Virus record (IMG/VR): IMGVR_UViG_3300029705_004726
Direction: 5' to 3' (one strand)
Length of the DNA: 64,000 nucleotides
Origin: an uncultured virus (IMG/VR IMGVR_UViG_3300029705_004726)
Lineage: Duplodnaviria > Heunggongvirae > Uroviricota > Caudoviricetes
The notes beneath the pieces are model-generated. The model was not told the DNA's origin. It did not search any database and saw only the letters and a program-made list of their open reading frames with translations. This document shows, in pieces, positions 23,256 to 64,000 of the stretch. Position numbers and translations under genes: made by a program. Position 1 is the stretch's first letter. Each line of letters starts with the position of its first letter.

Positions 23256-23292
23256 ATGCGATGGAAAATATCTTCGGAGGGGAAGACATAAA

Positions 23293-23469: not shown

Positions 23470-23487
23470 AATTTATTTAATTTCAAT

Positions 23488-23605: not shown

Positions 23606-23620
23606 TATTTTTTGTTTTTA

Positions 23621-23716: not shown

Positions 23717-23745
23717 ATAATATCACAAATAACGATATATGTCAA
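23717..23745 (-). promoter_or_regulatory. sigmaA-type promoter for ncRNA copies A-C
   Basis: TTGACA-17 bp-(TG)TATTAT. Confidence 0.8.
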
Positions 23746-30792: not shown

Positions 30793-31116
30793 TCATTTTC
30801 CTTCGGATTTTGTAATAATGTATGTTTGTGTTGGTTTATCACTTAATTCTAATTGTAATAAACCCTTTATTATACTTTCTAAGTCTATATATATATATTC
30901 TGTAATATTTTCAATAGTGGGTGAATTTAAAAAATCGTTTAAGTTTTTATTCTTAAATTTTTCTAAGTAGTTTTTGATTTTTTTTTCTGTTTCGCTTACC
31001 ATTGATTCATCATGTCGTATTGTTGCTACAACATCAAATGTATGTCCGTGTTCATCAGTTTTATCTTTATTATAAGAATGTGTGGCATTAAATCTAAAAT
31101 TGTATTTGTATAGCAT
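30793..31116 (-). CDS. Second QueD/PTPS-like protein
   Basis: F.FNATH...HGHTF...PTIEN...ELSD.PT. Confidence 0.8.
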   Translation of the reverse strand: MLYKYNFRFNATHSYNKDKTDEHGHTFDVVATIRHDESMVSETEKKIKNYLEKFKNKNLNDFLNSPTIENITEYIYIDLESIIKGLLQLELSDKPTQTYIITKSEGK

Positions 31117-34898: not shown

Positions 34899-35197
34899 GC
34901 AGCACCTCCATTTGTGATTGCAGTTATTGCTTTTTTCAAAAATTCTTTTGTTAAAGATGTGCAACTGGACATATAAACAGCCACTTGGGGAGAAGGTATG
35001 TCGGTTAAAACAGGATTACCTACTTTCATATAGGAAATCTTGTAATTTTGATTATTAACCATATTTCTAAAAATATCTTCTGCGTGACTGCTAGAATCGG
35101 CAAGAACAGATATCCATACTTTGCCGCCCAGTTTTAAGCCCCCGTTATGCACAACATCTGCAACGCAATCGTAGTAACTTTGTCTCTTTTGTTTCAT
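34895..35197 (-). CDS. Hypothetical protein coupled to the radical SAM gene
   Basis: GGAGG RBS; stop overlaps the radical SAM start. Confidence 0.7.
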   Translation of the reverse strand: MKQKRQSYYDCVADVVHNGGLKLGGKVWISVLADSSSHAEDIFRNMVNNQNYKISYMKVGNPVLTDIPSPQVAVYMSSCTSLTKEFLKKAITAITNGGAA

Positions 35198-35818: not shown

Positions 35819-37651
35819 TTACCAACGATACAAATTAAAAACCAAATTTTTTTCATCTGCCCACTCTTCAATAAAGTTCTCTTCATCACAGTTAATATCT
35901 CTGTTATATTTACCCCTAACCTGACAAATTCTGTTACCGACTACTTCAATTGTAACCAAAGGCAATGATTTGCTGGCTTGATTTCTTAAAAAGTATATCT
36001 TTGTATCCCCCTCGGAGACACGCTGAATATAGCTTCTTACGCAGTGATGAAGTTTTTTAGATTCTTCAACAAGGTCATCAGATTTTCTCGGAGCAAGTAT
36101 ACAATAAGTTTGTCCATTCGGAATATAAATATTTTCAGTATATTCCTTTTCTTCTACTCTTTCTTTGAAGTACTTGTTGTTTTTTGCCTCTTTCATTTGA
36201 TTAACAATATTAACCATAACATCATGTTCATACTTTAAATTTTTAGGGAATAAGCCTCCGCTATACCATTTTACATTAAAGCACATGTTTAAGTAGTCTC
36301 TATATAGATTAGTATCACCAATTTTAGATTTTCTTAAATAATTGATGTACTTCTTTATTGTTGATACACTTGTATTATTTTTAAGTCTGTCTTCAATAAA
36401 TCTAAATATTTCAACGTCAATATCATCAATTGAAAAGATGCTTTCATCGATATCAATCATATACTTAATTTTATTGATAACACTACTTAAAAAGTCATCA
36501 GTATTGAAATAAAGCTTACTGGTTAATGAATTGTATTGCATTCTTTCAAATTTTTTATAGTAAGAAAAGAAGCTGTCGCAAAAAGCATTAAACTTGTTCA
36601 GCTTAAACCCAAAAATTTCTTGAGCGTTTCTGCCAAATAAATTGATAGCATTATGCATGTGATTATAAATGTCTTCTTTAAGACGTGCAAAATAATACTG
36701 GTCTAAAAGTAAATCGGCAATTTTAGAGTAACCAGCCTTTGCAAGAATCTCAAATGCAGGAATGAAGGTCTTTGAAAAGAAATACTGGTAATAATAAGAG
36801 CCGTTGTAGTTGTTAAGCATAAGACCAGCTTTCATTTTTCTCATATTTGAATCAAAAATTAATCCAAAAGTGTTTGGCTTTACCAATACCTCTAAATCAC
36901 CATCATCAGGAGAATAAGCGTAATCTTCTGTAATAAAGAATCGATTTTTGTTTTCAATGTTCAATACCCCATCAGTTACAGTGCCACTTGCCACTGTAAT
37001 ATCAAAGAATGGTTCATTGTTAATGAAAATCTCTCTCTGATATGCAAAATTTATATACTGACCATTAAAGGCTTTTCCAATGTTTCTGTTAAATTTTACA
37101 AGGGGAATATCAAACAGACAGGTATTGTATTCTTTTTGGTTAACCTTTTTTAATTTCATATACTGCTTAAAAAACAAAAAGGCATTAGGCTGTAACTGAG
37201 TTGTAAAAATTCTTCTAACGTTTTTCATTGTAAAGTCATTAAGAGCAAACATATTTACATTGAACTCATTATATTTACTATTGCATAAATTTGTTGCAAA
37301 ATATTCGTGCCAAAAATCAATGTCACAGCTACCGTTTTCGATAATACCAACAACATTCTTTTTTATGGTTGCCCTGTATTCTTCTTTCCAATTGATTGCA
37401 TTTTCAGAAGTAGAGGAATAAACACACAAACATACAGTGTCCGCATCAGTAATAACATCAAACGCATAAAAAGTATGGTCGTATACAATGTAAGGAAATA
37501 GTGTGATATTGTATCTTTTATTAAATTTATCTCTTAAAGCTCTGAATTTTGAGCTAGAAATGTTTTCATATACTTCACTGATGATATCAACTTCTGCATT
37601 ATTGTACGTATTGTAATATTTTCCTTCCTTTTCATAAATATACTGATACAT
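35819..37651 (-). CDS. PcfJ-domain protein (paralog 1)
   Basis: C-terminal Y.DY..M...P..L...HD, ES..LHHCV.SY...IYFLR...TIEV...Q.RG.YN. Confidence 0.82.
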   Translation of the reverse strand: MYQYIYEKEGKYYNTYNNAEVDIISEVYENISSSKFRALRDKFNKRYNITLFPYIVYDHTFYAFDVITDADTVCLCVYSSTSENAINWKEEYRATIKKNVVGIIENGSCDIDFWHEYFATNLCNSKYNEFNVNMFALNDFTMKNVRRIFTTQLQPNAFLFFKQYMKLKKVNQKEYNTCLFDIPLVKFNRNIGKAFNGQYINFAYQREIFINNEPFFDITVASGTVTDGVLNIENKNRFFITEDYAYSPDDGDLEVLVKPNTFGLIFDSNMRKMKAGLMLNNYNGSYYYQYFFSKTFIPAFEILAKAGYSKIADLLLDQYYFARLKEDIYNHMHNAINLFGRNAQEIFGFKLNKFNAFCDSFFSYYKKFERMQYNSLTSKLYFNTDDFLSSVINKIKYMIDIDESIFSIDDIDVEIFRFIEDRLKNNTSVSTIKKYINYLRKSKIGDTNLYRDYLNMCFNVKWYSGGLFPKNLKYEHDVMVNIVNQMKEAKNNKYFKERVEEKEYTENIYIPNGQTYCILAPRKSDDLVEESKKLHHCVRSYIQRVSEGDTKIYFLRNQASKSLPLVTIEVVGNRICQVRGKYNRDINCDEENFIEEWADEKNLVFNLYRW

Positions 37652-40007: not shown

Positions 40008-40868
40008 ATGGTTAAAATGATTTTATTTGATAAAGATGTTGATGTAAAAAAATATTGTTGTAGTCGTGATAATATAAATTATCCTGATACTATTCCTCAT
40101 ATTAATTTGTATGTGCAAACAACTGCTGCATGTAACGCAAAATGTTATTTTTGCGATACTAGATGTTCATCTGATGAATTTGATTTTGATAAATTAGGAG
40201 ATGTAATTAAAGAATTAGATGGAAAAGTTAAACTGGGCAAAATTGCACTAACAGGTGGAGAACCTCTTTTAAATGTTGATAGACTTCATAAGATTATAGA
40301 AGTTTGTGGAGAAAAGTACTTAACACTGAATACAAATGCTTTTAATATTTACAGACTTAAAGAGTTTTATCCTCTTGTAAGAGAAGTTCACATAAGCAAG
40401 CATCATTATAATAATCAAAAAAATGATGAGATAATGAAAATAAAAACGCCGACGCTTGCAGAGATTTATGATTACGGTCTTATTGATAAAGTTAAAGTAA
40501 ATTGTGTTTGGCAGCGGGGATACATGGAAAGTTTTGAAGACTTAGTAAAAATGTTAGAGTTTTTATCTTACTTTGGTTACAGGGAAATTAGAAATATTTC
40601 TTTGTTACCACTTACAAACAAAGGGATTGAACAGTATGTGGATTTAGTAAATCTAATGAAACAGTGTGAAGGATTTTTAAATGATGGATATATGTATGAT
40701 AAAGGTATGTGCCAATGTTTCGAATTTATGTACCTTGCGGGTAACGGAAGATTGGTAAAATCTTTAATAAGACAGACATTTAATGATGACTATTCATGTG
40801 TTAAACAATTAGTTTATGATGGTAAACATTTGTATGATGGCTTCAAAAAGAAAAATATTATATATTAG
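40008..40868 (+). CDS. Radical SAM protein
   Basis: CNAKCYFC, LTGGEPL, NTN, HISKHH. Confidence 0.9.
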   Translation: MVKMILFDKDVDVKKYCCSRDNINYPDTIPHINLYVQTTAACNAKCYFCDTRCSSDEFDFDKLGDVIKELDGKVKLGKIALTGGEPLLNVDRLHKIIEVCGEKYLTLNTNAFNIYRLKEFYPLVREVHISKHHYNNQKNDEIMKIKTPTLAEIYDYGLIDKVKVNCVWQRGYMESFEDLVKMLEFLSYFGYREIRNISLLPLTNKGIEQYVDLVNLMKQCEGFLNDGYMYDKGMCQCFEFMYLAGNGRLVKSLIRQTFNDDYSCVKQLVYDGKHLYDGFKKKNIIY

Positions 40869-51191: not shown

Positions 51192-53423
51192 TTATACTGC
51201 CAATACACTGTTTCCATTAGTGTATTTAATTTTTTTATTCTCACAGTATTTTTTTAAGAAATCATCAAGTCCTTCAACAGTATCAGTTTTACAATTAGCA
51301 AATCCATGACATTGTCGAACCGTATTATCTCTTATTTCTAAAGTAAAGAAAGGTTTATCTAATTGTTCATTTTTACGAATAAATAAAATGTTTGTCTTCC
51401 CCTCTACGACACTATCAATATAAGATTTAACACAGTGATGTAGTGTTATACCTTCATTAGCTATATCTAGGTAACACTCTGGATATATAATAGAATATGT
51501 ATCATCAGAATATACATATTTTTTCCAAGACGAAATTCGTTTTTTAAATTTTTCTGTATATTCTTCATTCTTTTTTTCGTTTGATTTTAAGTTGTAAATA
51601 GCTACAATGTAATCATGACTATTCTTAAAATCTTCTGCGGTATTAAATTTACAACGTATTTCTTCATTATTTTCAAGTATAATATCAGACATTGTAATAT
51701 AGTCTTTTAAATGATGTAAAAATAAATACTTCATATTTTGCGATACTTTCAAAAGGTCTTTTATACAATTAGATAAATTTTTATACCCATTATGTTTTAC
51801 TAAAATATAAAACATATTTTTTATGTCATCAATAAATCCCTCTACCGAGCAATGAGAAAAATGAAAGAATGCCCAATAATTAAAATTATTGAAATTCGAT
51901 AATAATTCAATAAATTGTTCTTTGTTCATTGACTCAAAATATTCTATATTGTCTTTATAAGTATATTTCATAATTTTAATTGTATATGCCGTTAAATGTT
52001 CTTGTGCTTTATTATCTGCTTCTAATAATATTTTGTCTAGTTCTTTCAACATAAACGTTGGAATACCTATAGCTTTTGTAATGCTTGTTTCTTTATCATT
52101 TATATCACCAAACAACTTTTTAAGCTTTGATTTTGGTGATAAGTTTGGGTCAAAATGCATAGCCAAGTTATTTAATCCCATTTTTATAAAGGATTCATAT
52201 AATGAAAAGGTTAGACTTGAATATAACTCAGCGGAAGATTTTACACATTCAGCTAATGACTGAGATGAAAATTCCGCCTTGTCTTCAATTTTTTTATATG
52301 AATTTAAGCAAGCCTCTATTTGATGTTTAAAATATTTTAATTTGCAATTAGTTATTGCGTCATCAGGTGCATCTAATAGTACAAAATCAAAATTTATTGC
52401 CCTTAATCCATTAGGACACAAATACCATTCTTTTGAAGCTTTTTTGTATATACTAAATGTGTCATTAGAACAATATATTCTAATAACTTCATCGATTATT
52501 AAATCGTCTTCTAATAATGGAATATTTCTTTTATTTATTCTTAATACATCAGGCGCTATATAAAAAATTCTTATAACACTTAGTTTATCAGAAAGTTTGT
52601 CTAAGAATGATATCTTGAATTTTTTTGTATCAATCATTCTTTGATAATAATGATAATAATTTTTAATGTAATTTACTTCATCAACACTAAAAGTTTGTAG
52701 AAATATATTATAAGCCTTTTTCTTGTTTTCAATAGAAATTTCTTGTAAATCACAATTTTTTTCTGTTTTGATATTTTTGTCTGCATTTTTTTTAATTTCA
52801 TTTATTTTTGAAATATCAGAAAGAACAGATAAATTATTCACAGGTAAAAAGTTTAATCCACCAGAACAAATGGTATCACCAAAAAAATCTCTTATAAGAG
52901 ATATTGAATAGTCTCTATTTTCAAAGATACTACTTGCTGATTTTGATGAGAAGGCGTCAATAAATTTTTCTGAATCTAATTTTCTTAACGAGTTTCTAAT
53001 AGCTGGTCTAAAAGGTATATAACAACTTCCATTTTTTTCGAATACAAAACATGATTCATAAATAGTGTTTGTTCTGTTTTCTGATTCTTTTATGGGTTCC
53101 CAATGTTGTATATCTTCTTTTTTTGTATTAGTGATACGTGCCAGTTTTACAACTAACACATCATGTTTTTTGTTGTGGTATATAAAATATCCATTAATAG
53201 TCGTTGATAATGAAAGAAATATATATTTTTTTCCTGTACGAATAACATTGTCCATGTGACGGTCTTTCTTGCCCGTCATGTAATTATGATAGACGTATTC
53301 TCTTAATTTAATGTCATAATTAAACATGATTATATCGCTTGCATTTTTTGCAATTTCTTTAATAGAATTTTCGCCTTTGCCCTCGTAAATATCACGATAT
53401 ATAAGTTCTGTATCAAGAATCAT
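51192..53423 (-). CDS. PcfJ-domain protein (paralog 2)
   Basis: EGITLHHCVKSY...GKTNILFIRK...DKPFFTLEI...QCHG. Confidence 0.82.
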   Translation of the reverse strand: MILDTELIYRDIYEGKGENSIKEIAKNASDIIMFNYDIKLREYVYHNYMTGKKDRHMDNVIRTGKKYIFLSLSTTINGYFIYHNKKHDVLVVKLARITNTKKEDIQHWEPIKESENRTNTIYESCFVFEKNGSCYIPFRPAIRNSLRKLDSEKFIDAFSSKSASSIFENRDYSISLIRDFFGDTICSGGLNFLPVNNLSVLSDISKINEIKKNADKNIKTEKNCDLQEISIENKKKAYNIFLQTFSVDEVNYIKNYYHYYQRMIDTKKFKISFLDKLSDKLSVIRIFYIAPDVLRINKRNIPLLEDDLIIDEVIRIYCSNDTFSIYKKASKEWYLCPNGLRAINFDFVLLDAPDDAITNCKLKYFKHQIEACLNSYKKIEDKAEFSSQSLAECVKSSAELYSSLTFSLYESFIKMGLNNLAMHFDPNLSPKSKLKKLFGDINDKETSITKAIGIPTFMLKELDKILLEADNKAQEHLTAYTIKIMKYTYKDNIEYFESMNKEQFIELLSNFNNFNYWAFFHFSHCSVEGFIDDIKNMFYILVKHNGYKNLSNCIKDLLKVSQNMKYLFLHHLKDYITMSDIILENNEEIRCKFNTAEDFKNSHDYIVAIYNLKSNEKKNEEYTEKFKKRISSWKKYVYSDDTYSIIYPECYLDIANEGITLHHCVKSYIDSVVEGKTNILFIRKNEQLDKPFFTLEIRDNTVRQCHGFANCKTDTVEGLDDFLKKYCENKKIKYTNGNSVLAV

Positions 53424-54646: not shown

Positions 54647-54818
54647 AGTTAGAACCTCCTTCGTAAAATGGCCTATACTGTTACAAAAAACTTTGTATTT
54701 ATATTATATCACAATACTCATTTAATTGATTAATTTTTATTTTATTTCTTAATCTATATTGACGCATACCATAAAAAGTGGTATAATAAATATATGAATT
54801 AAAGAGAGAGGGTGAAAC

Positions 54819-55160
54819 ATGAATAACTGTTCTTTAAAGGTAATTAGAAGTATTGAAGATATGACTGATTATTATATTGTGTTTGATGGTGTTAATGTTG
54901 GGAATTTGGATGTTACTGAAAAAGAAGACGAAGTCTTTATTAAACATATTGGCATTGCTAATGAATATAGAAGATGTGGTTATGCTAGAAAAGTGCTTGA
55001 ATATATGTTTTACCTTTTTAAGAAAGATATTTCTTTTTGTATTGCAACCCGTAGTGAATCCGCTGTTAAGTTTTGGAACAAGATTATTGAAGAAAAGAAT
55101 GGTATTCATATTAGAGGGAATATATATAAGTTGCCATACAAAAAAAATGCAAAAATTTAA
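54819..55160 (+). CDS. GNAT-family acetyltransferase
   Basis: I.I..EYRRCGYA acetyl-CoA loop; A..FW. Confidence 0.8.
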   Translation: MNNCSLKVIRSIEDMTDYYIVFDGVNVGNLDVTEKEDEVFIKHIGIANEYRRCGYARKVLEYMFYLFKKDISFCIATRSESAVKFWNKIIEEKNGIHIRGNIYKLPYKKNAKI

Positions 55161-55168
55161 AAAAGGTA

Positions 55169-55197
55169 TTGACATATACCATATATCGTGGTATACT
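55169..55197 (+). promoter_or_regulatory. sigmaA-type promoter of the ncRNA/tRNA operon
   Basis: TTGACA-17 bp-(TG)TATACT. Confidence 0.85.
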
Positions 55198-55207
55198 AAG
55201 TACATAA

Positions 55208-55279
55208 GGTTGTAGCAGAGAAACGATTACATCTACAAATCTCATACGTTTGAAAACATCGTTTCTATTATTCACAACT
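55208..55279 (+). ncRNA. Y-RNA-like family copy D, with CAT anticodon-arm mimic
   Basis: GGTTGT-AGCAGA-GAAACGAT-TACATC..CAAAT-CTCATAC-GTTTG..ATCGTTTC-TATTATTC-ACAACT. Confidence 0.75.
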
Positions 55280-55298
55280 ACATAATAAAAAATAATAA

Positions 55299-55388
55299 AT
55301 AACTGTAGCAGAAAGATTATTACATCTTAATCGAACAATTGACTGTAAATCAATGATAAACAAAATAATCTTTAATATACGCAGTTAT
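55299..55388 (+). ncRNA. Y-RNA-like family copy E, with GTA (Tyr) anticodon-arm mimic
   Basis: AACTGT-AGCAG-AAAGATTAT-TACATC..ATTGA-CTGTAAA-TCAAT..ATAATCTTT-AATATAC-GCAGTT. Confidence 0.75.
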
Positions 55389-55394
55389 AAATTT

Positions 55395-55467
55395 GGCTCG
55401 GTAGCTCAGATGGTAGAGCGATAGCCTGAACAGCTATGCGTCGGTGTTTCGAAAGCACCCTGAGCCA
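55395..55467 (+). tRNA. tRNA-Phe(GAA), atypical (C37, non-canonical T-arm)
   Basis: GGCTCGG/CTGAGCC; ATAGC-CTGAACA-GCTAT; GGTGT-TTCGAAA-GCACC. Confidence 0.8.
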
Positions 55468-55469
55468 CT

Positions 55470-55555
55470 AGGGAAGTCGGCGGCAACAGTTCGATACTGC
55501 TACTTTGGAAGACCGTTTGTTGGGAGAGTCGTAGGTTCGAGTCCTACCTTCCCTT
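55470..55555 (+). ncRNA. tRNA-like element (intact acceptor and T-arm, non-tRNA middle)
   Basis: AGGGAAG/CTTCCCT; GTAGG-TTCGAGT-CCTAC. Confidence 0.65.
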
Positions 55556-55611
55556 TATGGGGTATTAGCTCAGATGAATATAGAATGATAAATTTAATAA
55601 AGGAGATTTTT

Positions 55612-55833
55612 ATGAAAAAAAGATACATACAAGTTCATACAGAGGACGGCACTCTAATATCCGAAAAACTGATTGAAGGAAGTCTGAAAAAATTGTCGGA
55701 CAAAGGTATTTTGAAAATTTTGCTTCGGGAGAGTGACCCGCTGTCCAATCCTTGTCTCGAAAAAACAGAGAACGGTGTTGTTCTTCATAGAAACTGGCCA
55801 CTCAAAACGGTTATTTCCATTTGCAAAAAGTAG
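55612..55833 (+). CDS. Hypothetical protein between the direct repeats
   Basis: MKKRYIQVHTEDG...; AAGGAG RBS. Confidence 0.65.
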   Translation: MKKRYIQVHTEDGTLISEKLIEGSLKKLSDKGILKILLRESDPLSNPCLEKTENGVVLHRNWPLKTVISICKK

Positions 55834-55860
55834 GTTGGACAGAAAGACAGGCAAATGAAG

Positions 55861-55925
55861 TGGAGAGAGACTTTAACAAAATCTCTGCAATAGAGGAGTT
55901 GTAGGTTCGAGTCTTACCTTTCCAT
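55861..55925 (+). ncRNA. Short tRNA-like element (acceptor and T-arm)
   Basis: TGGAGAG/CTTTCCA; GTAGG-TTCGAGT-CTTAC; small hairpin CTCT/AGAG. Confidence 0.55.
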
Positions 55926-55928
55926 TAT

Positions 55929-56001
55929 GGGGTATTAGCTCAGATGGTAGAGCACTTGACTTTTAATCAAGGAGTCACGGGTTCAAGTCCCGTATGCCTC
56001 A
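55929..56001 (+). tRNA. tRNA-Lys(TTT)
   Basis: Cloverleaf; CTTGA-CTTTTAA-TCAAG. Confidence 0.95.
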
Positions 56002-56044
56002 TTATCTATTTTATAAAGTAGATGAAAAACAGGAGGTGGGTATA

Positions 56045-56353
56045 ATGTGGTCTTTATTTTGTGAATTACCACCAGAACTTTTAAAACAGGAAGCAAAAAC
56101 GTGTGTGAGAACGCATTATGATGAAAATGAGTATAAAAAATTACACACAAAACAGTTGCTTAAGGAATTAGATGGACTAAGAAAAAGTAATCCCGCTAAT
56201 TGTTGTTTTTGTTGTTCTAATTGGAGAAAATGTGATAAGATAAATGAAGAAAACATGAACATGATTAGAAAAATTCTTGCAACAAGAGAACACGTATTAA
56301 ATAAAAAAGAATCTAAACAGCTTCGCAAAGAAAGAATAAAACGAGGTGTTTAG
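56045..56353 (+). CDS. Hypothetical protein
   Basis: AGGAGG RBS; IL.TREH..NK.E.K..R motif. Confidence 0.7.
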   Translation: MWSLFCELPPELLKQEAKTCVRTHYDENEYKKLHTKQLLKELDGLRKSNPANCCFCCSNWRKCDKINEENMNMIRKILATREHVLNKKESKQLRKERIKRGV

Positions 56354-56361
56354 CATATATT

Positions 56362-56447
56362 GGTCAGGTGTCCGAGTGGTTTATGGAGCTGGTCTTGAAA
56401 ACCAGTGATGCGGAAACGCACCGTGGGTTCGAATCCCACCCTGACCG
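56362..56447 (+). tRNA. tRNA-Ser(TGA)
   Basis: Long variable arm, G73; CTGGT-CTTGAAA-ACCAG. Confidence 0.95.
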
Positions 56448-56599
56448 TTGACGCCGTGTACGTCAATTAAAAACCCCCACAGTCTCGTGCAATATCTCGT
56501 TTGTATGGGAAAGGATATATGGAAGACGGGATTGAAGTATATCTAAAGTGGTAGAAACCATAGTGGCAAGTTTGTGTGGGGTATCTTGCTTATTTAAAT

Positions 56600-56673
56600 G
56601 GACCGTTAGCTCAATTGGTCAGAGCATTCGGCTCATAACCGAACGGTTCTGGGTTCAAGTCCCAGGCGGTCCA
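56600..56673 (+). tRNA. tRNA(CAT), probably Ile2 (lysidine) rather than Met
   Basis: TTCGG-CTCATAA-CCGAA; GGACC acceptor resembles Firmicute tRNA-Ile2. Confidence 0.9.
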
Positions 56674-56779
56674 TTTTTCAATTTTAAGGAAATTTTGAGC
56701 AAAAATGAAAATCGCATAAAAAGGGATAATATTTTTTTATCATCTTTTTTTTTAGCTTATAAAAGGAGAGTGCGATACT

Positions 56780-57121
56780 ATGAAAATAAAAATTTTAAGA
56801 TTTTTAAAGCTTGCTAAAGATAAAATTAAGAGCAACTTTACTTTTATTTTAATTGTAGTTGTTTTTTTTATATCAATATTTGTTTATCATATTAATACTG
56901 AAATGATTGTAATAGAGGGTAGGTTTGAAGAGATGTGTCAAGATGCCGACACGGAAGAACTCCTTTATATTGTTGTTAAGACGGATAATCAAGATAGGGT
57001 GAAAATATTGAGTAAAGTATTTGAGGATGGCAAACCTCATTCTTCTCTTGGAAGAAGAGTTACTTATACTGTAAAAAAATATTCTAATCAGTACGAAATT
57101 ATTCAAAGGGGGGATAAATGA
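56780..57121 (+). CDS. Hypothetical membrane-anchored protein
   Basis: One TM; AAGGAG RBS. Confidence 0.65.
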   Translation: MKIKILRFLKLAKDKIKSNFTFILIVVVFFISIFVYHINTEMIVIEGRFEEMCQDADTEELLYIVVKTDNQDRVKILSKVFEDGKPHSSLGRRVTYTVKKYSNQYEIIQRGDK

Positions 57122-57144
57122 TATCATAAAAAAATAAAAAACTC

Positions 57145-57173
57145 TTGACGCATACCATATATTATGGTATAAT
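57145..57173 (+). promoter_or_regulatory. sigmaA-type promoter with palindromic spacer
   Basis: TTGACG-17 bp-TATAAT containing ATACCATA-N3-TATGGTAT. Confidence 0.85.
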
Positions 57174-57182
57174 AAATACATA

Positions 57183-57257
57183 AGGTTATAGCAGAGATAG
57201 CGATTACATCGAAAATTTTATCAGAAAAATAAAAATCGTTTCTAATATTCGTAACCT
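57183..57257 (+). ncRNA. Y-RNA-like family copy F
   Basis: AGGTTAT-AGCAGA-GATAGCGAT-TACATC..TTTTAT-CAGAAAA-ATAAAA..ATCGTTTC-TAATATTC-GTAACCT. Confidence 0.75.
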
Positions 57258-57264
57258 ATATAAC

Positions 57265-57348
57265 GGACGGTAGTTCAATTGGTTAGAGCGTTCAGTTTTT
57301 ATATCTTTTGTAACTGAAAGGTTTGAGGTTCGATTCCTTGACAGTCTA
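57265..57348 (+). ncRNA. Aberrant tRNA-like gene with expanded anticodon loop
   Basis: D-arm GTTC-AATTGGTTA-GAGC, stem TTCAGTT/AACTGAA with 14-nt loop, T-arm GAGG-TTCGATT-CCTT, imperfect acceptor. Confidence 0.65.
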
Positions 57349-57349
57349 T

Positions 57350-57826
57350 TAGCCTTATGGCGAGCATTGTCCGTGATGTGTCAAAACACGGAATATTGCC
57401 GAAGAATATCGGACGAGGTTAAAGAGCGTAAGTGACTTGCTGTAGTGTCGTGAGATGGGGTGTTTTGCGAGGCTCCTATAAAAACTCACATAAGCGATGA
57501 AAGCACAGTTGGGTTTGAAATGAGAGGTGATGCCAGGGACTCACCAACGAAAAACCTAAAAGAGACCCTCTGGGGTAAGCATTTCAGGGCTGTAACCTTC
57601 TTGACAGGAAAATAACTAAATTAGCTTGTAGGTACGTAAAAGAAACCTTCTGAGGCGATAATTCGTAGGGCAACGGCTGTCTGCGCGTGGACAGGGCATA
57701 AAGAGTATCCGTTGGAGAGTTGTGGTACGGCTCAAATAAATAAACTCTTCCCTTATAGGGAACAAATACTCATTCTTTCTTTCTAGAAGGGAAAAAATTA
57801 GCCTTATTTCGGTTGGAATAGGGCTA
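57350..57826 (+). ncRNA. Large structured ncRNA (~480 nt), ROOL-like
   Basis: GC-enriched, no credible ORF, many helices, follows a tRNA-like gene, ends at a terminator; AATATCGGACG and TGGGGTAAGCAT resemble motifs recalled from ROOL RNAs. Confidence 0.65.
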
Positions 57827-57834
57827 TATTTTTT
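57799..57834 (+). terminator. Intrinsic terminator
   Basis: TAGCCTTATTTC/GGAATAGGGCTA plus T-tract. Confidence 0.7.
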
Positions 57835-57929
57835 GTAAAAAATATATATGGCAGTAGACAAATACTTTATTTTGTGGTATAATTAAGATATGATAAAGAA
57901 AACTATATATCACGAAGGAGGTTTTAATT

Positions 57930-58520
57930 ATGAGTGAAAAAGATAATATGACGGTTGTTGTAATTAGTTATAGTTTTGATGCAGAGGTGGTTGCTGTTAT
58001 TTGTGATGATTATCCGTCTGCCTGTAAATTTATAAAAGAAGATTTTGAAAGAGAAAGAAAAATTGATGAAGAAGAAAACGGGTATGAAATTGATGAAACT
58101 GTTACAAAGTTAGATGCGGAAAACGGGTACGCTGTTCTTGGAACGATTTATCGTTCTAGTCCTGAGACAGAGACAACCACATGGAAGATTGCAAGAAATA
58201 TAGATATTCGTGGACAAAAAGAAAAAGAGAAGCCTATTTCCACTTCTGATGATGGCAAGGATATAGAAAGTCTTAGAGAAAGATTTAGCGAGGAAATGGA
58301 TTTGGCTGTTCAATCAGAACTTGGGTATGATAGTGATAATCTTACATCTGATGGTTGGGACTTTCTCGAATATGAAGCGTCTGAATTAATTTTGAAATGT
58401 CTTGCTAAATTAGATGATACTGAATTAGATGATATTACTCAGGAAGATATAAATGAAATATTAAGTAAGATAATTTCTGAGTATGAACAGACACACTCAA
58501 ATATTCGTTATTATGAATAA
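57930..58520 (+). CDS. Acidic hypothetical protein
   Basis: AAGGAGG RBS; promoter and terminator. Confidence 0.72.
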   Translation: MSEKDNMTVVVISYSFDAEVVAVICDDYPSACKFIKEDFERERKIDEEENGYEIDETVTKLDAENGYAVLGTIYRSSPETETTTWKIARNIDIRGQKEKEKPISTSDDGKDIESLRERFSEEMDLAVQSELGYDSDNLTSDGWDFLEYEASELILKCLAKLDDTELDDITQEDINEILSKIISEYEQTHSNIRYYE

Positions 58521-58565
58521 TAGAAATCCCCTAAGCACGGTATTGTGCCTAGGGGATTATTTTGT

Positions 58566-58820
58566 TTACCATGCAGGTTTTTTAAGAAGAGAATCGAACG
58601 GAATTTTGTTAGTACGTTCATCGTAGATTAACGTATAACCATTAATTCCTTCTGCATATTTCTCTCTTTGCTCAATATTTGTCCAGGTAATTGTAACACT
58701 TCCTCCATGAGCGAATACAAGCACAGCCTGTGGCAAACTACTTCCTTCTTCTGTGATGCGAATTGCAGTTATCGGTCCCTGCTTGTTTACATCATACTCT
58801 CTTTTCTTTCCTTCTGGCAT
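58566..58820 (-). CDS. Hypothetical protein
   Basis: AAGGAAGG RBS. Confidence 0.62.
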   Translation of the reverse strand: MPEGKKREYDVNKQGPITAIRITEEGSSLPQAVLVFAHGGSVTITWTNIEQREKYAEGINGYTLIYDERTNKIPFDSLLKKPAW

Positions 58821-58992
58821 AATGTACCTTCCTTTCTTGACTTTTGTTATTTACTTCATATTTTAATTATATAATTAAATTTAAAAAATAAAAAAATAAT
58901 GATATAATTTATATATTAAGTTTAGACGTACACAGTATATTAGACGTAAGTAACCATAGATAATGCAAGAGAGAAAAAAGGAGGATGCGATT

Positions 58993-59472
58993 ATGATGAG
59001 TATCGCTAAAATCAATGAGCTGTGGCTCGAATTTGTAGCAAAGATGGCTATTTACACCAATGTGTTTTCTGCTGTTGTAATTGATGATATTGATATCAAT
59101 GAAGACTATGCAGAAATGTGTCTGAAAGATTATTTGGATGTGCGTGACAGGTTAGTCGATGCATTAGCAGATATTTTTCTTTTAGATGCATGGGCTCAGT
59201 ATGAGTATCTGGGCGAAAATTACGTTAATGACGGGTATCAGGAGTTTAGCAACAGAGAAGAAGCAAAAAAATATTTGGAATTATTATTTGCTGAGACAGA
59301 ACATGACCCAGCAGAAATTAACACAGACGTAATTAGTATTGGTGATTACCTGTTGGTTTTGCAGGTTGTTAGACAGTCTATTATTGATTGTGGTAGACGT
59401 CGTTATCTTGTTACATTTAGAGAAGTTCTTCGCAAAAAGAGAGAAGACATCGACCGTGTTGATGAGGATTAA
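58993..59472 (+). CDS. Hypothetical protein
   Basis: AAGGAGG RBS. Confidence 0.68.
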   Translation: MMSIAKINELWLEFVAKMAIYTNVFSAVVIDDIDINEDYAEMCLKDYLDVRDRLVDALADIFLLDAWAQYEYLGENYVNDGYQEFSNREEAKKYLELLFAETEHDPAEINTDVISIGDYLLVLQVVRQSIIDCGRRRYLVTFREVLRKKREDIDRVDED

Positions 59473-59515
59473 CAAAAAGAACCTTGTGGTTATTACACCA
59501 CAAGGTTCTTGCCTT

Positions 59516-61690
59516 TTATACTGCTAATAATTCATTACAACAGTTATATTTAATATTTTTTTCATCACAGAATTTTTTTAAGAAAGCATCAAGGCCTTCT
59601 ACTGTATCCACATTACAATTATTGTATCCATGACATTGTCTAATCTTTTTATCACGAATTTCTAATGTAAAAAATGGTTTATCTAATTCTTCATTTTTAC
59701 GAATAAATAAAATATTCGTTTTTCCTTTTATGATAGCTTCGGCGTATGACCTTACACAATGGTTAAGAAGTATTCCCTCGTTTACAATATCTAGATATTC
59801 TTTTGGATATGTTATTGTAAATTTATCATCATTGAATGAAAAATACTTAAAATGTTTTTCTTTTTCTTTCAATTTTTTATTATACAGACTGATGTCACAA
59901 TTAGTATGTTTGATATTATATAATGCAGTTAAATTATCGTGATATCTTCTTAGTTCTTCTGCATTTTTAAATCTATATCTAATTGAATTTTTATCCATAT
60001 TTTCATATACGGCATACAACATATACATACAGTCTTCCCAAAAATGGTGATAAACATTATTCCATTCTTCCTGAGTGCATTTCAAACTTTCATACAAGTC
60101 ACAATAAGCGTCTAAATATCCAATTAGATTTTTGTGTCCGCATACTTTTATCAACAATTCAAAAGGTCCTATTTCCACCACAGGGAGTTTACGTATATTG
60201 TAATATTCAATCAAGTATTTAATCAGCGTATCTAATTGGTCATTATTCATTGATAAGAAATAGTTTGTATGGTCTTTATATAATTTTTTTAAACTTTTGA
60301 CGATATTTTTAACAAATACACTGTAAAAATAATTTTGAGAGCAGTCATAATCTATATTATCAATTATACTATTTACTTTTTTTACAAGATAAAACGGTGC
60401 TTTTACAGCTTTTGAAAAATCATTCTCATACTTGTTTATGCCACCAAACATATAAGACAATTGTTCATACGCTGAAAAGTTTTCTGGTGCGTCTTTAATA
60501 AAATTATTAAGACCTGATTTAATAAATTTCTCGTATAAAACATTTGTTATGCTTGCAAGAAGGTGCATGGATTTTGTCTTGTCTTCTATTCCATTTTTTT
60601 CGACTTCTTTTATCTCATCAGAAAAATATTTAAGTTTGCAATTATTAATTGCATCTTCTTCTATACAAAAGAAAGTTGTGTAAAAGGTATTTACTGGTAG
60701 CTCGTCGTTTAATACATTCCATCTATTAAAGAATTTTTGGCATACAAAAGTAGTGGTATCAGTTATGTATATTCTATATCCTTCATATTCACAAATATCG
60801 CCATTTTCAGGTTTTTCATTATCCATAACGTTTAATGTAAGAGCATCGTACATAGTGCAAAATATTCTTATTACACTTGTCGTTTCATTAATTTTTTCAA
60901 TTTTACTTTGTTTTATTAGAACATTTCTTGGAAATTGCCATAATTCTTTGTAATAATCACAAATATCTTTTCTATTGTCATTATTAGAAAAAAACTTCAT
61001 AAAATTATTAAAAGTTTCTCTCATCTTTTGATGTTCTTTTTTTGAAATAGGCTTTAAAGGAATATTAATTATATCATTATATTTTTTCTCATTTTTAGAT
61101 ATTTCTTTATTTTGAGGAGAAGTAAATAAATGTACAATATTCCGAATATCGTCAAACGGTAAGTATTGTGTAAAATGGTCATAAAACATATTACCAAAGA
61201 AGCCTCTTAATGTTGCAATTAAATGATGATGGCTATGATTAGACGCACTTAAATAGTCTCCATAACAATCGAGGGTAGAAAAATCAACAAAACAGGATAA
61301 CGCTATTATATTATTTCGATAGTAGTTTCCATGTTTATCTACTATGCAACAGGCGATTTCATCATTTTTCGAGACAAATTCCCACTTTCTTTTTTCATTC
61401 TTTTTTGGATTTGTTAAAGTATCAATTTTAACAAACTTAAATACTATAACATCTTCTTCCTTGTTGTGATAGCAAAAATAGCCTATTGTTGTTTTTTGAT
61501 ATCTATTAAACACAACAATGGACGTTTTATTTCTTTTAATTTCATCAAGAGAACCACTTTTGCCTGTTGTAAGGTTATGATATTCTTCATTTTCTAATTT
61601 TATTATTACATCACTTGCATCTTTTAATAACTCATCAATTGATACGTCTAGTCCCTTAAATATGTTTATATATTTGCTTTGTGTTTCCAT
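59516..61690 (-). CDS. PcfJ-domain protein (paralog 3)
   Basis: EGILLNHCVRSY...GKTNILFIRK...DKPFFTLEI...QCHG; full-length similarity to 51192..53423. Confidence 0.82.
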   Translation of the reverse strand: METQSKYINIFKGLDVSIDELLKDASDVIIKLENEEYHNLTTGKSGSLDEIKRNKTSIVVFNRYQKTTIGYFCYHNKEEDVIVFKFVKIDTLTNPKKNEKRKWEFVSKNDEIACCIVDKHGNYYRNNIIALSCFVDFSTLDCYGDYLSASNHSHHHLIATLRGFFGNMFYDHFTQYLPFDDIRNIVHLFTSPQNKEISKNEKKYNDIINIPLKPISKKEHQKMRETFNNFMKFFSNNDNRKDICDYYKELWQFPRNVLIKQSKIEKINETTSVIRIFCTMYDALTLNVMDNEKPENGDICEYEGYRIYITDTTTFVCQKFFNRWNVLNDELPVNTFYTTFFCIEEDAINNCKLKYFSDEIKEVEKNGIEDKTKSMHLLASITNVLYEKFIKSGLNNFIKDAPENFSAYEQLSYMFGGINKYENDFSKAVKAPFYLVKKVNSIIDNIDYDCSQNYFYSVFVKNIVKSLKKLYKDHTNYFLSMNNDQLDTLIKYLIEYYNIRKLPVVEIGPFELLIKVCGHKNLIGYLDAYCDLYESLKCTQEEWNNVYHHFWEDCMYMLYAVYENMDKNSIRYRFKNAEELRRYHDNLTALYNIKHTNCDISLYNKKLKEKEKHFKYFSFNDDKFTITYPKEYLDIVNEGILLNHCVRSYAEAIIKGKTNILFIRKNEELDKPFFTLEIRDKKIRQCHGYNNCNVDTVEGLDAFLKKFCDEKNIKYNCCNELLAV

Positions 61691-61756
61691 ATTGCCTCCT
61701 GTTTTTATTTATAAAGCCAGAATAAAATAATATTCTGGCTTTTAATAGTCTAAATT

Positions 61757-62074
61757 TTATTTACAAAATTCTTTCCATGTATAGTCATTATTGAAAACTG
61801 GATTATTATTCCAGATTTCAATTAATTTACTGCATATTTCTTTTTCTTCTTGCTCATTAGGATATAACAGTAAATCATCAACATTGTGCCAATCAACTTC
61901 ATCAAGAGGTTGAGAGTACGTCCAACTATCACATTCAATAACTTCAATCTTTTCTACTCTATTATTAACAGAAATGTTAGAGTAGACAATTTTTCCGTCA
62001 TCTAATTCAATCTCTGCTTCTAATGATAAAAACGGATAAATATGTGCAATTGTTCTTGTTCTCAAAATTTTCAT
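61757..62074 (-). CDS. Hypothetical protein
   Basis: AAGGAG RBS. Confidence 0.65.
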   Translation of the reverse strand: MKILRTRTIAHIYPFLSLEAEIELDDGKIVYSNISVNNRVEKIEVIECDSWTYSQPLDEVDWHNVDDLLLYPNEQEEKEICSKLIEIWNNNPVFNNDYTWKEFCK

Positions 62075-62239
62075 ATAGCATCACTCCTTTAATAAATTCA
62101 AATTTTTATTACATTATTATTATACCACATTTTATGATAAAAGTCTATACAAAAAGATGAAATTAAGAATTCTTTTTTCTTGTGTTTTTCCGTGTTTTGT
62201 GGTATAATGTATATATAATTATAAGGAGGTGTTTGTCAA

Positions 62240-62479
62240 ATGGAACGATATTTAGTAGTCATTATATGTAAAGAAGTTGAGCAGATTTGTTATGATATTT
62301 TAACTGAAAAAGAATATAAAACGTTATTAGATAAAAAAAGCCAAAAGGAAAAAGAAGATTATATTTTAGAATTAGAAGAAGAGAAAAAAATAACATATTA
62401 TCAACTTGGATTGTTATTTGAAGCTATAAATTTAAAAGAAATAAAGATTGTTGACACATATATATTTTATTGGGAATAA
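62240..62479 (+). CDS. Small hypothetical protein (paralog pair, first)
   Basis: Shared YLV...L..KEY...L.K....K.DY...LF.AI......I.DTY.F. Confidence 0.68.
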   Translation: MERYLVVIICKEVEQICYDILTEKEYKTLLDKKSQKEKEDYILELEEEKKITYYQLGLLFEAINLKEIKIVDTYIFYWE

Positions 62480-62491
62480 GGAGGCGTATAA

Positions 62492-62725
62492 ATGTATTTG
62501 GTTTCGGATGTAAATGTAAATGAAGATAAATATGTCTTTTATGTATTAAATAATAAGGAGTATATTGAATTCTTAAAAAAAGAAGGAGAAGTTAAAAAAA
62601 GAGATTATTTGAAGTATTCTTTTGCAATTAGTCCTAGTGCTAAAATATATTATAGCTTTAAGGATTTGTTTAAAGCGATAGATAGTGAAAATTTGACAAT
62701 TTTAGATACTTATGAATTTGTGTAA
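62492..62725 (+). CDS. Small hypothetical protein (paralog pair, second)
   Basis: Same motif as 62240..62479. Confidence 0.68.
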   Translation: MYLVSDVNVNEDKYVFYVLNNKEYIEFLKKEGEVKKRDYLKYSFAISPSAKIYYSFKDLFKAIDSENLTILDTYEFV

Positions 62726-62756
62726 AAAATTATTTTAAGTTAAATTAAAAAACGTA

Positions 62757-62785
62757 TTGACATATATCATAACTTATGGTATGAT
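62757..62785 (+). promoter_or_regulatory. sigmaA-type promoter
   Basis: TTGACA-17 bp-(TG)TATGAT. Confidence 0.82.
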
Positions 62786-62794
62786 ATATTCATA

Positions 62795-62879
62795 AGGTTA
62801 TAGCGGAAGAGACGATTACATCTAACACTTATTTGGAAAGTATTGCAGAAAAAAAAATCGTTTCTATTATTCATAGCCT
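62795..62879 (+). ncRNA. Y-RNA-like family copy G, with TTG (Gln)-like loop
   Basis: AGGTTAT-AGCGGA-AGAGACGAT-TACATC..ACTT-ATTTGGA-AAGT..ATCGTTTCT-ATTATTC-ATAGCCT. Confidence 0.75.
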
Positions 62880-62881
62880 AT

Positions 62882-63123
62882 ATAATTGATTATGAAAATC
62901 CTCTATGATGGTTGTATAAGTCCAGATATACACCACCATGGTATGTAATACTGGAACAAGCATATCAAAATAAAATTCAGAAGTTTGGAGGTCTTTTGGA
63001 TACTTGGTAGATAATAGTCGGAGCCGCGAGCTGTGTGAAAAGGTATGTGTACAAATACCGAATCTAGCCGAGAAAATCAGTCCGAGATGATTTTCTTTTG
63101 ACCGACCGCCATTTATAGTTATT
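62882..63123 (+). ncRNA. Candidate ~240-nt structured ncRNA with two potential pseudoknots
   Basis: Several hairpins; loop complements TCCAG/CTGGA and TCGGA/TCCGA; no ORF; between promoter and terminator. Confidence 0.6.
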
Positions 63124-63129
63124 ATTTAA

Positions 63130-63170
63130 ACCCCGCCGCGGATTGCAACCGTGACGGGGTATTTTCTTTT
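63130..63170. terminator. Intrinsic terminator between the ncRNA and the convergent SPFH gene
   Basis: ACCCCGCCGCGG/CCGTGACGGGGT stem followed by a T-rich tract. Confidence 0.75.
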
Positions 63171-63175
63171 GTTAA

Positions 63176-64000
63176 TTAAATTAAATCTTCATCATTAAAT
63201 ATATCACCACATTCAGGACAAAATCTAGGTGGTTTTGTATTATCTTCTGGTTGCCATCCGCATTTATCACATTTGTATTTTTTTATAATAGGCTTTGGAT
63301 TTCCACAATCTTTACAAAATTTTGTTGAATTAATAGAACCACAAGAACACTGCCAATTATTATTTGCTGGTGTTGGTTGTTCTCCATTTATTGGTTTTTT
63401 AGCCCCACAATTTACACAAAACTTAGTTGTATTATTAGTATTACATGAGCATTTCCACATATCTGTAGATGTTGTTGTTTGTTGCATAGGAGTAGTTTGG
63501 TTATAAAATCCTCCCATCGGTTGCATATTAGGAATTTGTTGATTATTGCTAAAGATATTACCATGTGTGTTTGTATTTCCCATAGTAAGTCCCATTCCAT
63601 ATAATCCAGAGATACCACCATTTTCACCAGCAGCTTTATATGCTTCCATTCTGTCTTTTTCAATTTCAAATTGCATTAAATTTGCATTTGCTGACATTGC
63701 GGCTTTTTCTGCTAATTGTTGTATCTTTTCTATGTACTCGTCTTCTGGAACAGGTGCCCCGTTAAATACAATAACAACCAGATTAATTCCATATAATCTT
63801 TCCCAGTTTGAGCCATTTTTTTCTTTGATTATTCTTCCAATATCTTCTGTATGTATAGCAAGCTCATCATACATCAAAGGTTGTTCTGTTCCTAATTTTG
63901 AGAAACTAGCAGCAACTGCTTGATTAATAGATGGTTTAATTAAAGCAAATGGTCCACCATCTTCAAAGGCTTCTTCTACTGTATATAAACCATCATTATC
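63176..64000 (-). CDS. SPFH/band-7-like protein with C-terminal zinc ribbons; 5' end outside the window
   Basis: Frame open to the window end; W...YGI.L, A.GEN.GG..G.GMG, repeated W.C.C...N..KFC..CG and FCPECG. Confidence 0.78.
   Translation of the reverse strand, partial: DNDGLYTVEEAFEDGGPFALIKPSINQAVAASFSKLGTEQPLMYDELAIHTEDIGRIIKEKNGSNWERLYGINLVVIVFNGAPVPEDEYIEKIQQLAEKAAMSANANLMQFEIEKDRMEAYKAAGENGGISGLYGMGLTMGNTNTHGNIFSNNQQIPNMQPMGGFYNQTTPMQQTTTSTDMWKCSCNTNNTTKFCVNCGAKKPINGEQPTPANNNWQCSCGSINSTKFCKDCGNPKPIIKKYKCDKCGWQPEDNTKPPRFCPECGDIFNDEDLI

Follow-up and report, generated by a model that had tools for sequence, protein, structure and literature searches.

A probable phage-borne family of Y RNAs with exchangeable cargo, including lone anticodon-like arms

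The stretch of DNA analysed here (64,000 nucleotides, hereafter the window) derives from an uncultured virus, a large phage of the gut (IMG/VR record IMGVR_UViG_3300029705_004726), and carries seven copies of a Y-like RNA, designated A to G, together with rsr, a gene for a homologue of the Ro60 protein. Copies A (23615-23708), B (23482-23605) and C (23286-23470, with a cargo of ~125 nt) are located on the minus strand immediately upstream of the TROVE/Ro60 open reading frame (ORF; 21331-23073, minus strand), and A is the first unit of this array. Copies D (55207-55286), E (55300-55393), F (57183-57263, with an A/U-rich cargo) and G (62795-62885) are on the plus strand, opposite to that of rsr and 32.1-39.7 kb away from it. 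The positions of D to G had been proposed in a first-pass annotation made from the letters alone, and these positions, as well as every sequence string it quoted, proved to be exact when checked. Copies A to C were found with a pattern taken from the 5ˊ half of D to G, which yielded 5 matches against 0.79 expected. In each RNA, a constant clamp of two helices encloses a variable cargo, and we consider it likely that D to G are extra genes of a phage-borne family of Y RNAs.

The ORF at 21331-23073 is predicted to encode a Ro60/Rsr homologue of 580 amino acids with a HEAT ring and a vWA domain, and it matches the Pfam TROVE family with an E value of 6.9e-7. A search of the PDB with the single Rsr protein returned nothing, and a family profile was required. 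More than 4000 Rsr homologues are present in metagenomes, some of them titled 'TROVE domain-containing protein', and a profile of 30 homologues matches the Ro60 protein of Thermus phage phiLo (9KOP, 9L5Y) with an E value of about 7.5e-12. In a Foldseek search with an AlphaFold2 model of Rsr (mean pLDDT 78.6), ranks 1-13 are all Ro60 proteins from phage, frog, human and Deinococcus, with 512-614 aligned columns, and vWA domains begin at rank 14. When close relatives were sought, the single Rsr protein matched none in viral contigs, and GenBank phages were matched through their tRNAs only.

Structurally, the two helices are common to all seven aligned window copies. The clamp comprises a 6-bp terminal helix, a bulged A, a conserved G-C pair, an asymmetric internal loop and a 9-bp second helix, which is followed by UAC(U/A)UC. 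The window copies carry a variant of this clamp (YGUAGCRG) that keeps the bulged A and the G-C pair of the wider family described below; the internal loop reads 5ˊ AGCAG / 3ˊ AUUAUUC in the window and 5ˊ GC(A/G)G / 3ˊ AUAUUC in the family. The cells assigned to clamp pairs are paired in 96.2% of cases in the seven copies, compared to 79.5% in shuffles and 35-59% when the partner strand is slid, and both-sided (compensatory) changes occur at 12 of 15 clamp pairs. The observed covariation score was reached by none of 500 shuffles. Because U-G pairs arise only in the given orientation, the RNA strand of D to G is the plus strand. A covariance model built from the seven copies (R1) scores them at 83.9 (A), 66.1 (B), 51.7 (C), 79.9 (D), 75.8 (E), 79.9 (F) and 72.3 bits (G), and the broader model R2 scores them at 62.7, 45.5, 46.1, 61.3, 56.5, 61.1 and 58.4 bits in the same order. 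An eighth candidate at 20766-20842 scores 24.6 bits with R1 and is absent from the R2 matches at E ≤ 0.1; it corresponds to the leader of an HSP20 gene and was rejected.

The family extends to other phages. When run on 80 phage loci whose Rsr homologues have 40-61% identity, R1 gave 118 matches, all on the rsr strand. R2 was built from these matches and gave 305 matches at E ≤ 0.1 in the window and the 80 loci. We used 290 of the 293 locus matches listed, the three weakest being dropped, and these together with the seven window copies make up 232 distinct sequences; the counts per 290 matches and per 232 RNAs given below rest on the R2 matches listed. At least one clamp match is present at 79 of the 80 loci, with a median of 3 and a maximum of 10 per locus. 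All the locus matches listed are on the rsr strand, 145 of the 290 within 300 nt of the gene and 225 within 1 kb. Across 113 distinct relatives in a model-fitted alignment, pairing holds in 94.8% of cells and both-sided changes occur at every one of the 15 pairs, with a score of 0.887 versus 0.213. The family consensus runs stem 1, GA(A/U)GC(G/A)G, stem 2, UACUUC, cargo, stem 2ˊ, AUAUUCUC, stem 1ˊ. With the last bases of stem 1 included, its 5ˊ side reads YCGAAGCGG and contains the CGAA motif, which has been used as a hallmark to recognise Y-like RNAs (PMC12135203).

The clamp is also present in bacterial assemblies, in which 79 Rsr loci gave 88 matches (E ≤ 0.01) next to the gene; 80 of these matches lie on the rsr strand. 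These loci come mainly from rumen and gut metagenome-assembled genomes, and also from Bacillus sp. Brlt_9 and Acetatifactor muris. A 14-base clamp pattern run over viral contigs returned mostly chance matches, with 5 weak model matches (best 24 bits) for 80 of the 114 matching stretches, and was rejected. The Rfam models YrlA and Y_RNA do not report the window copies: YrlA gave no match in the window at its gathering threshold (69 bits) and none over A to C and D to F at E ≤ 10, the stretch of G having been searched at the gathering threshold only, and Y_RNA gave no threshold match in the window or in the loci of eight relatives. One sibling (L124:4845-4999) aligns with all 114 positions of the YrlA model at 37.1 bits (E 1.8e-6 in a search of 665 bases), which is below the 69-bit threshold. 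Overall, the covariation and the linkage to rsr in relatives support a single family of Rsr-linked RNAs, constant in the clamp and exchangeable in the cargo, to which the seven window copies belong. The first-pass annotation had described D to G as a modular scaffold, and that structural description is borne out at the level of the family.

The copies in the window are arranged in non-coding units with strong promoters. Copies D, F and G each begin 10 nt past a sigma-70 promoter, as had been proposed for three of the four outlying copies, at 55169-55197 (TTGACA-17-TATACT) for the D-E-tRNA unit, 57145-57173 (TTGACG-17-TATAAT) for the F unit and 62757-62785 (TTGACA-17-TATGAT) for the G unit, all on the plus strand. 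These are three of the four best matches in 54800-63300, each agreeing with the consensus at 11 of 12 positions and carrying the TG of an extended −10 element. An equal-scoring promoter (23717-23745, minus strand; TTGACA-17-TATTAT, 11/12, with TG) precedes copy A and the A-B-C array. At its 3ˊ end, copy E lies 1 nt from a tRNA-Phe gene (55395-55468), and copy F lies 1 nt from a tRNA-like element (57265-57348), beyond which a terminator-like hairpin (57799-57826) closes the F unit. The tRNA-like element, on the plus strand, matches the Rfam tRNA model at 33.9 bits, has an 18-nt loop at the place of the anticodon loop and is not called by ARAGORN.

This arrangement raises the possibility that the clamp is not a Ro60 ligand at all and instead serves non-coding operons as a processing stem or promoter-proximal leader, for instance as an RNase III site or in antitermination. 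Copies A, D, F and G do directly follow promoters, and copies abut tRNAs. Moreover, proximity to rsr alone could mislead because the gene is embedded in tRNA islands: the 80 loci and the window together give 736 ARAGORN calls that do not overlap Y-like RNAs, and 566 of 568 distinct free tRNA calls are on the rsr strand. However, copies B, C and E and most relatives sit within tandem arrays rather than after promoters. Another element follows within 25 nt in 168 of the 290 cases, and this is another copy in 124 and a tRNA in 44 (median gap to the tRNA 8 nt). None of the real tRNAs in the window has a clamp around it, and some cargos are bare A-rich linkers that leave nothing to release. The bulge and the conservation of unpaired bases indicate a site that a protein recognises by its sequence, and half of the matches (145/290) are within 300 nt of rsr. 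On this evidence, a role confined to processing or leader function appears very unlikely.

The cargo of copies D and E is a canonical anticodon-like arm. In copy D, a single hairpin at 55236-55252 (CAAAU-CUCAUAC-GUUUG, 5 bp) makes up the cargo, and copy E carries a hairpin at 55338-55354 (AUUGA-CUGUAAA-UCAAU, 5 bp). Both hairpins are part of the minimum free energy (MFE) fold, in which each of the two copies retains the clamp together with its hairpin. Each has a 5-bp stem, a 7-nt loop, a pyrimidine at position 32, U33 and a purine at position 37. The first-pass annotation had assigned hairpins of this kind to all of D to G, a claim that holds for D and E and only nominally for F and G, where the quoted hairpins are weak and lie outside the MFE fold. 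In copy F, the quoted hairpin (UUUAU-CAGAAAA-AUAAA) consists entirely of A-U pairs and lacks U33, and the MFE fold holds the clamp alone. In copy G, the quoted hairpin has 4 bp and A32 and occurs in neither the MFE nor the centroid fold; the MFE fold has another weak hairpin with a 7-nt loop, which is lost in the centroid. Copy A, for which a degenerate GCA loop had been proposed, folds with a 6-nt loop. Neither ARAGORN nor Rfam calls a tRNA gene over any of A to G, and D to G lack a T or D arm and the permuted tRNA domain of YrlA type. Thus, D and E present lone canonical anticodon arms with the triplets CAU and GUA, and the cargo of F and G is degenerate. By our own arithmetic, two such arms among seven copies have p ~0.008 at the shuffle rate of ~2% per RNA (4.6/232). 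The strong support for anticodon arms comes from the relatives, not from the window copies.

To assess the relatives, hairpins that combine a 7-nt loop with a stem of 5 bp or more were counted in the 232 RNAs and in shuffles. Such hairpins occur in 113 RNAs compared to 50.8 ± 6.0 in shuffles. Loops of 3, 6, 8, 9, 11 and 12 nt stay within about two standard deviations of the shuffles, and loops of 4, 5 and 10 nt show smaller excesses of approximately three. The 148 distinct hairpins with 7-nt loops consist of 47 T loops (UUCRANN), 25 with the strict anticodon-loop pattern C-U-NNN-A-A, 13 with other forms of the looser pattern Y-U-NNN-R-N, and 63 others. Counted by RNA and compared with 300 dinucleotide-preserving shuffles, the loose pattern is found in 39 of 232 (shuffled 4.6 ± 2.1, maximum 11), the strict pattern in 25 (0.55 ± 0.75, maximum 5) and T loops in 59 (0.19). 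Among the 101 loops that are not T loops, C32 is present in 52%, U33 in 53%, A37 in 54% and A38 in 50%, where the background is 18% for C and 34% for A. Stems of the strict hairpins are exactly 5 bp in 20 of 25 cases. Of 455 arms from free tRNAs of the same phages, 51% show the strict loop and 91% the loose one.

The triplets are varied, with 18 kinds in 38 hairpins (UUU 7, GUU 4, UGA 4, GUA 3, GCU 3, CAU 3 and twelve others). The frequency of UUU (7/38, versus 3.7% of 568 free tRNAs) was noticed post hoc in small related samples, and we do not build on it. In the replication set of 88 RNAs from bacterial assemblies, analysed with mononucleotide shuffles, the loose pattern occurs in 11 (1.75 ± 1.36 in shuffles), the strict pattern in 7 (0.24 ± 0.49) and T loops in 31 (0.03). 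The first-pass annotation had proposed to test whether the cargo loops of homologues are enriched for Y-U-NNN-R-N on 5-bp stems with varied triplets, and this enrichment is found in both sets. Loops of the form CUGUNA(A/C), as in anticodon loops for Tyr, Asn, Asp and His, are also enriched irrespective of the stem (20/232 versus 5.7 ± 2.2, and 9/88 versus 2.3 ± 1.4). Across relatives, then, the cargo is modular, for the most part derived from tRNA, and strongly enriched for canonical anticodon arms.

By motif, 16 of the 232 RNAs carry an anticodon-like arm followed by a T arm, in tRNA order; 21, including D and E, carry a lone anticodon-like arm; 47 carry a T arm without an anticodon-like arm; and 2 carry a T arm before an anticodon-like arm. 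In 24 of the RNAs that have a T arm without an anticodon-like arm, a D-loop motif follows the T arm, which is the permuted YrlA layout. The remaining 146 have neither arm, and their cargos include bare A-rich linkers and a conserved cargo of ~170 nt. The forms therefore range from cloverleaves with D, anticodon and T arms, in which the clamp acts as the acceptor stem, through permuted YrlA-like modules and lone arms to A-rich linkers and larger RNAs. In 17 of the 232, ARAGORN recognises a tRNA whose acceptor stem is the second clamp helix. Some related RNAs appear to capture the exchange of parts. Those at L119:11840, L129:11847 and L126:11790 have a common layout of two hairpins, with the triplets UUU, UUU and UCU in the first and UAA, UAA and UCC in the second, and a CUUGAAA loop is present on three different stems at L119:11712, L129:11717 and L126:11666. 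A loop frame that is kept while the stem or triplet changes is what interchangeable cargo would look like, although such groups are few.

If the loops themselves had no role, the cargo could be a relic of tRNA genes that were captured between the clamp strands and now merely stabilise the RNA. Protection from nucleases has been proposed for the tRNA-like fold of a bacterial Y RNA (Chen et al., PMC4201824), 146 of the 232 members have no such module, and copies F and G resemble decayed versions. A relic, however, does not readily account for the 21 RNAs that retain a lone anticodon arm after loss of the D and T arms, for the 20 of 25 strict stems that are exactly 5 bp, or for the groups at L119, L129 and L126, in which the loop frame is held while stems and triplets change. 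We regard this explanation as rather improbable. Another possibility is that these are U-turn (YUNR) loops for fast RNA-RNA pairing, which would guide Rsr to a complementary loop or a codon-like stretch. The Y-U-N-R frame is known from the recognition loops of antisense RNAs, and the triplets vary freely, as pairing loops might (18 kinds in 38 hairpins). Against this, the hairpins of 16 RNAs are accompanied by D and T arms in the order found in tRNA, the conservation of A37 and A38 equals that in tRNAs of the phages themselves (51% of 455 free tRNA arms read C-U-NNN-A-A), and three to seven pairing bases provide little specificity. Selection for pairing is thus a most improbable origin of the loops.

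We therefore favour a family of Rsr-linked Y RNAs whose modular cargo, derived from tRNA, is under selection and includes the lone anticodon arms of D and E, and we judge this reading likely to be correct. Several observations weigh against it. Copies D to G are 32-40 kb from rsr on the other strand, so the linkage used to recognise Y RNAs holds for them only through the clamp they share with A to C, which show it directly. In five complete relatives, all matches fall within a 20-kb region around rsr (150 first-look candidates were scored per genome), and the 32-40 kb spread in the window may consequently be unusual. Copies F and G have no stable anticodon-like hairpin, and both this hairpin and a T arm are missing from 146 of 232 relatives, which makes the anticodon arm one of several kinds of cargo. 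The YrlA threshold of Rfam is reached neither by the window copies nor in the loci of eight relatives. The distinct sequences are still interrelated, and the shuffle statistics overstate their independence. The cargo stems resemble resident tRNAs of the same anticodon only slightly (3.28 versus 3.78 mismatches of 10, p 0.02). Finally, rsr has no conserved protein neighbour (the largest cluster covers 16 of 149 loci), and RNA-repair ligases occur irregularly, with Rnl1-like proteins (tblastn) at 1 of 159 loci and RtcB in 1 of 5 complete genomes. PF09511 was found in none of the 5 complete genomes, but control genomes were equally silent, so that this result carries no weight.

Under the favoured reading of an Rsr-linked family with modular cargo, the clamp is a putative docking site for the phage's own Ro60/Rsr. 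Its linkage to rsr, its bulged helix of CGAA type and the YrlA-like tRNA domains of siblings all suggest this role. Strong promoters of non-coding operons would yield the Y-like RNAs as their first product, with 5ˊ ends presumably defined by transcription start. RNase P probably generates the 3ˊ ends by cleaving at the tRNA that follows, which could apply to E and F because each ends 1 nt before a tRNA or tRNA-like element and which would accord with the polycistronic Yrn2-tRNA-Yrn1 precursor of Deinococcus (PMC4201824). Once the RNA is on Rsr, the anticodon arm might project from the distal end of the clamp and be open to a factor that reads anticodon loops.

One candidate for this factor is a host anticodon nuclease, for which the RNA might act as a decoy or a sentinel. 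Competitive inhibition of an anticodon nuclease has been suggested for YrlA (Hughes et al., PMC7790460), and we put forward this putative partner only tentatively. A broader and more speculative form of the idea, which we consider doubtful, is that large gut phages hold a small library of Ro60-bound RNAs with different arms (Lys, Asn, Tyr, Ser, Met and others) to counter anticodon nucleases. The arms might soak up the nuclease, or, once cut, they might free Ro60, accompanied by PNPase of the host, so that tRNA damage is cleared or signalled.

Alternatively, the arm and the other tRNA-derived modules might be adaptors that tether Rsr to a tRNA-handling protein, with a different partner for each Y RNA. 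Proposed partners are PNPase, a modification enzyme such as tRNA-guanine transglycosylase, a synthetase or the ribosome, and these are offered with equal reserve. U33-G34-U35 is a signature of tRNA-guanine transglycosylase, and CUGUNA(A/C) loops, which contain it, are enriched in both sets (20/232 and 9/88). The window also encodes two PTPS/QueD-like and two radical-SAM proteins, and several kinds of cargo can occur inside one array. However, no partner gene is conserved beside rsr, and the link to the transglycosylase is built on this recognition rule. GUN loops are targets of colicin E5-type nucleases as well, and so the motif does not separate an adaptor from a nuclease decoy. Y RNAs are known to tether Ro60 to PNPase (PMC4201824, PMC12135203), and we consider an adaptor role possible but not probable.

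Beyond the Y-like RNAs, the units headed by F and G carry additional non-coding sequence. Between the tRNA-like element of the F unit and its terminator-like hairpin lies a rather G+C-rich region of ~450 nt (57349-57798, plus strand) that has no plus-strand ORF of at least 70 amino acids and a single 81-amino-acid frame on the opposite strand. Metatranscriptome contigs of 262-398 nt from four runs of one study lie wholly inside 57362-57779 and differ from the window by 1-6 letters, one of them with 2 gaps, and the flanking bins 57061-57151 and 57789-57850 have zero depth in the same runs. The region fits a candidate stable RNA of ~400 nt, with transcription left unproven by the contigs. It gave no Rfam match at E ≤ 10, its folding z-score is −0.18, and it has no relative in the fetched loci. 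In these four runs, over 55150-57850, no contig covers D, E or F, and RNAs so short are not expected there. Contigs over the tRNA stretch extend into unlike sequence and are therefore probably from other organisms. After copy G, ~280 nt (62886-63170, plus strand) contain no listed plus-strand ORF of at least 70 amino acids and end in a G+C-rich hairpin and a T run, so that here, too, a Y-like RNA heads a unit composed of RNA alone. Among all fetched loci, nothing related in sequence to the RNAs that follow F and G was found.

The tRNA array that follows copy E contains a 50-nt stretch duplicated with 92% identity (55527-55576 and 55897-55946, plus strand) on either side of a 73-amino-acid ORF (55612-55833) that has no Pfam match. 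The duplicated stretch comprises a T-arm-like hairpin and the first 18 nt of tRNA-Lys, and the arrangement looks like an insertion into the tRNA array. Rfam tRNA matches below threshold are located at 55470-55555 and 55861-55925.

Other RNAs of the Rsr loci are larger. In one phage subgroup, the RNAs at L169:9071-9301, L193:6921-7151 and L186:5255-5484 and about 20 similar ones have clamps that hold the conserved cargo of ~170 nt, with shared blocks near the 3ˊ end, and they are located directly upstream of two short Y-like RNAs and rsr. The L169 locus gave no Rfam match at the gathering threshold. ROOL RNAs occur in the tRNA islands upstream of rsr in related phages, at L119:7872-8515 (284 bits) and L129:6326-6967 (277 bits). 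In the window itself, a T4 Rnl1-type RNA ligase (32257-33507, plus strand) and the PTPS/QueD-like and radical-SAM proteins mentioned above (28434-28871, 30793-31116 and 33975-34964 on the minus strand, and 40008-40868 on the plus strand) suggest tRNA repair and 7-deazaguanine chemistry in the same phage. A transfer-messenger RNA gene (1500-1865, minus strand; 126 bits) lies next to tRNA-Pro, so the element has its own ribosome-rescue RNA. Three large paralogous ORFs with a C-terminal PcfJ-like domain are present on the minus strand at 35819-37651, 51192-53423 and 59516-61690.

The reason for tRNA mimicry by bacterial Y RNAs has been left open in published discussions (Chen et al., PMC4201824; Hughes et al., PMC7790460). 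The family offers natural variants in which the anticodon arm is the sole cargo and the triplet differs from copy to copy, and this makes the purpose of the mimicry directly testable. The Y RNA world also grows by several hundred members that lie beyond the Rfam model, in arrays that reach ten per phage, and the Ro60 clamp emerges as a general holder for structured RNAs. If the decoy library proved to be real, it would constitute a programmable array of RNA decoys and would give the tRNA mimicry of Y RNAs its first assigned function.

Among known systems, Yrn1 of Deinococcus radiodurans is closest in layout. Its Ro60-binding stem is formed from the 5ˊ and 3ˊ ends, its tRNA-like part is ordered as a D-like arm, an 'anticodon arm' and a T arm, with a 5-bp stem, and it is co-transcribed with a tRNA in a polycistronic Yrn2-tRNA-Yrn1 precursor (PMC4201824). 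In contrast, its 'anticodon loop' is described there as 6 nt and in one version (PMC4201824), whereas the family here has canonical 7-mers of the form C-U-NNN-A-A and 18 triplets. Many members of this family also keep the anticodon arm only, and a single locus can hold up to 10 of them. Metazoan Y RNAs are similar in that they are 80-130 nt long and bind Ro60 through a conserved, bulged helix of the terminal stem, but the account in PMC4201824 reports no apparent tRNA-like module for them.

In kinship, the closest relatives are YrlA and the Yrl RNAs of phage phiLo. YrlA (RF02553; Salmonella, Mycobacterium and mycobacteriophages) is likewise located beside rsr and has a tRNA-like domain, and its permuted module of T arm, acceptor-like stem and D arm is found by motif in 24 of 232 siblings, one of which spans the whole model. 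Unlike the arms of D and E, however, the Ro60 stem of YrlA replaces the anticodon arm, so that YrlA has no anticodon loop; conversely, D to G have no T or D arm and no YrlA match, and the best sibling reaches 37.1 bits. The phiLo RNAs Yrl1 and Yrl2 are Y-like RNAs situated just upstream of Ro60 (9KOP, 9L5Y), with a stem-bulge-stem form and the CGAA motif, and their binding to Ro60 and to host PNPase has been demonstrated (PMC12135203). The phiLo Ro60 is the nearest solved relative of the window Rsr, at 18% identity over the structural alignment. Two RNAs are described for that phage, and PMC12135203 gives no tRNA- or anticodon-like cargo in its description of them.

The first-pass annotation knew of no description of such an arrangement, and this is partly upheld. 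Already in print are Y RNAs that mimic tRNA, phage Ro60 proteins with Y-like RNAs, and the idea of YrlA as a possible inhibitor of anticodon nucleases (PMC4201824, PMC12135203, PMC7790460). Full-text literature searches yielded no published account of modular Y RNAs with anticodon arms, although reviews may discuss anticodon-like modules. New features are canonical 7-nt loops bearing many triplets, lone arms as sole cargo and arrays of up to ten, along with outlying promoter-proximal copies and a clamp variant that lies beyond the reach of Rfam.

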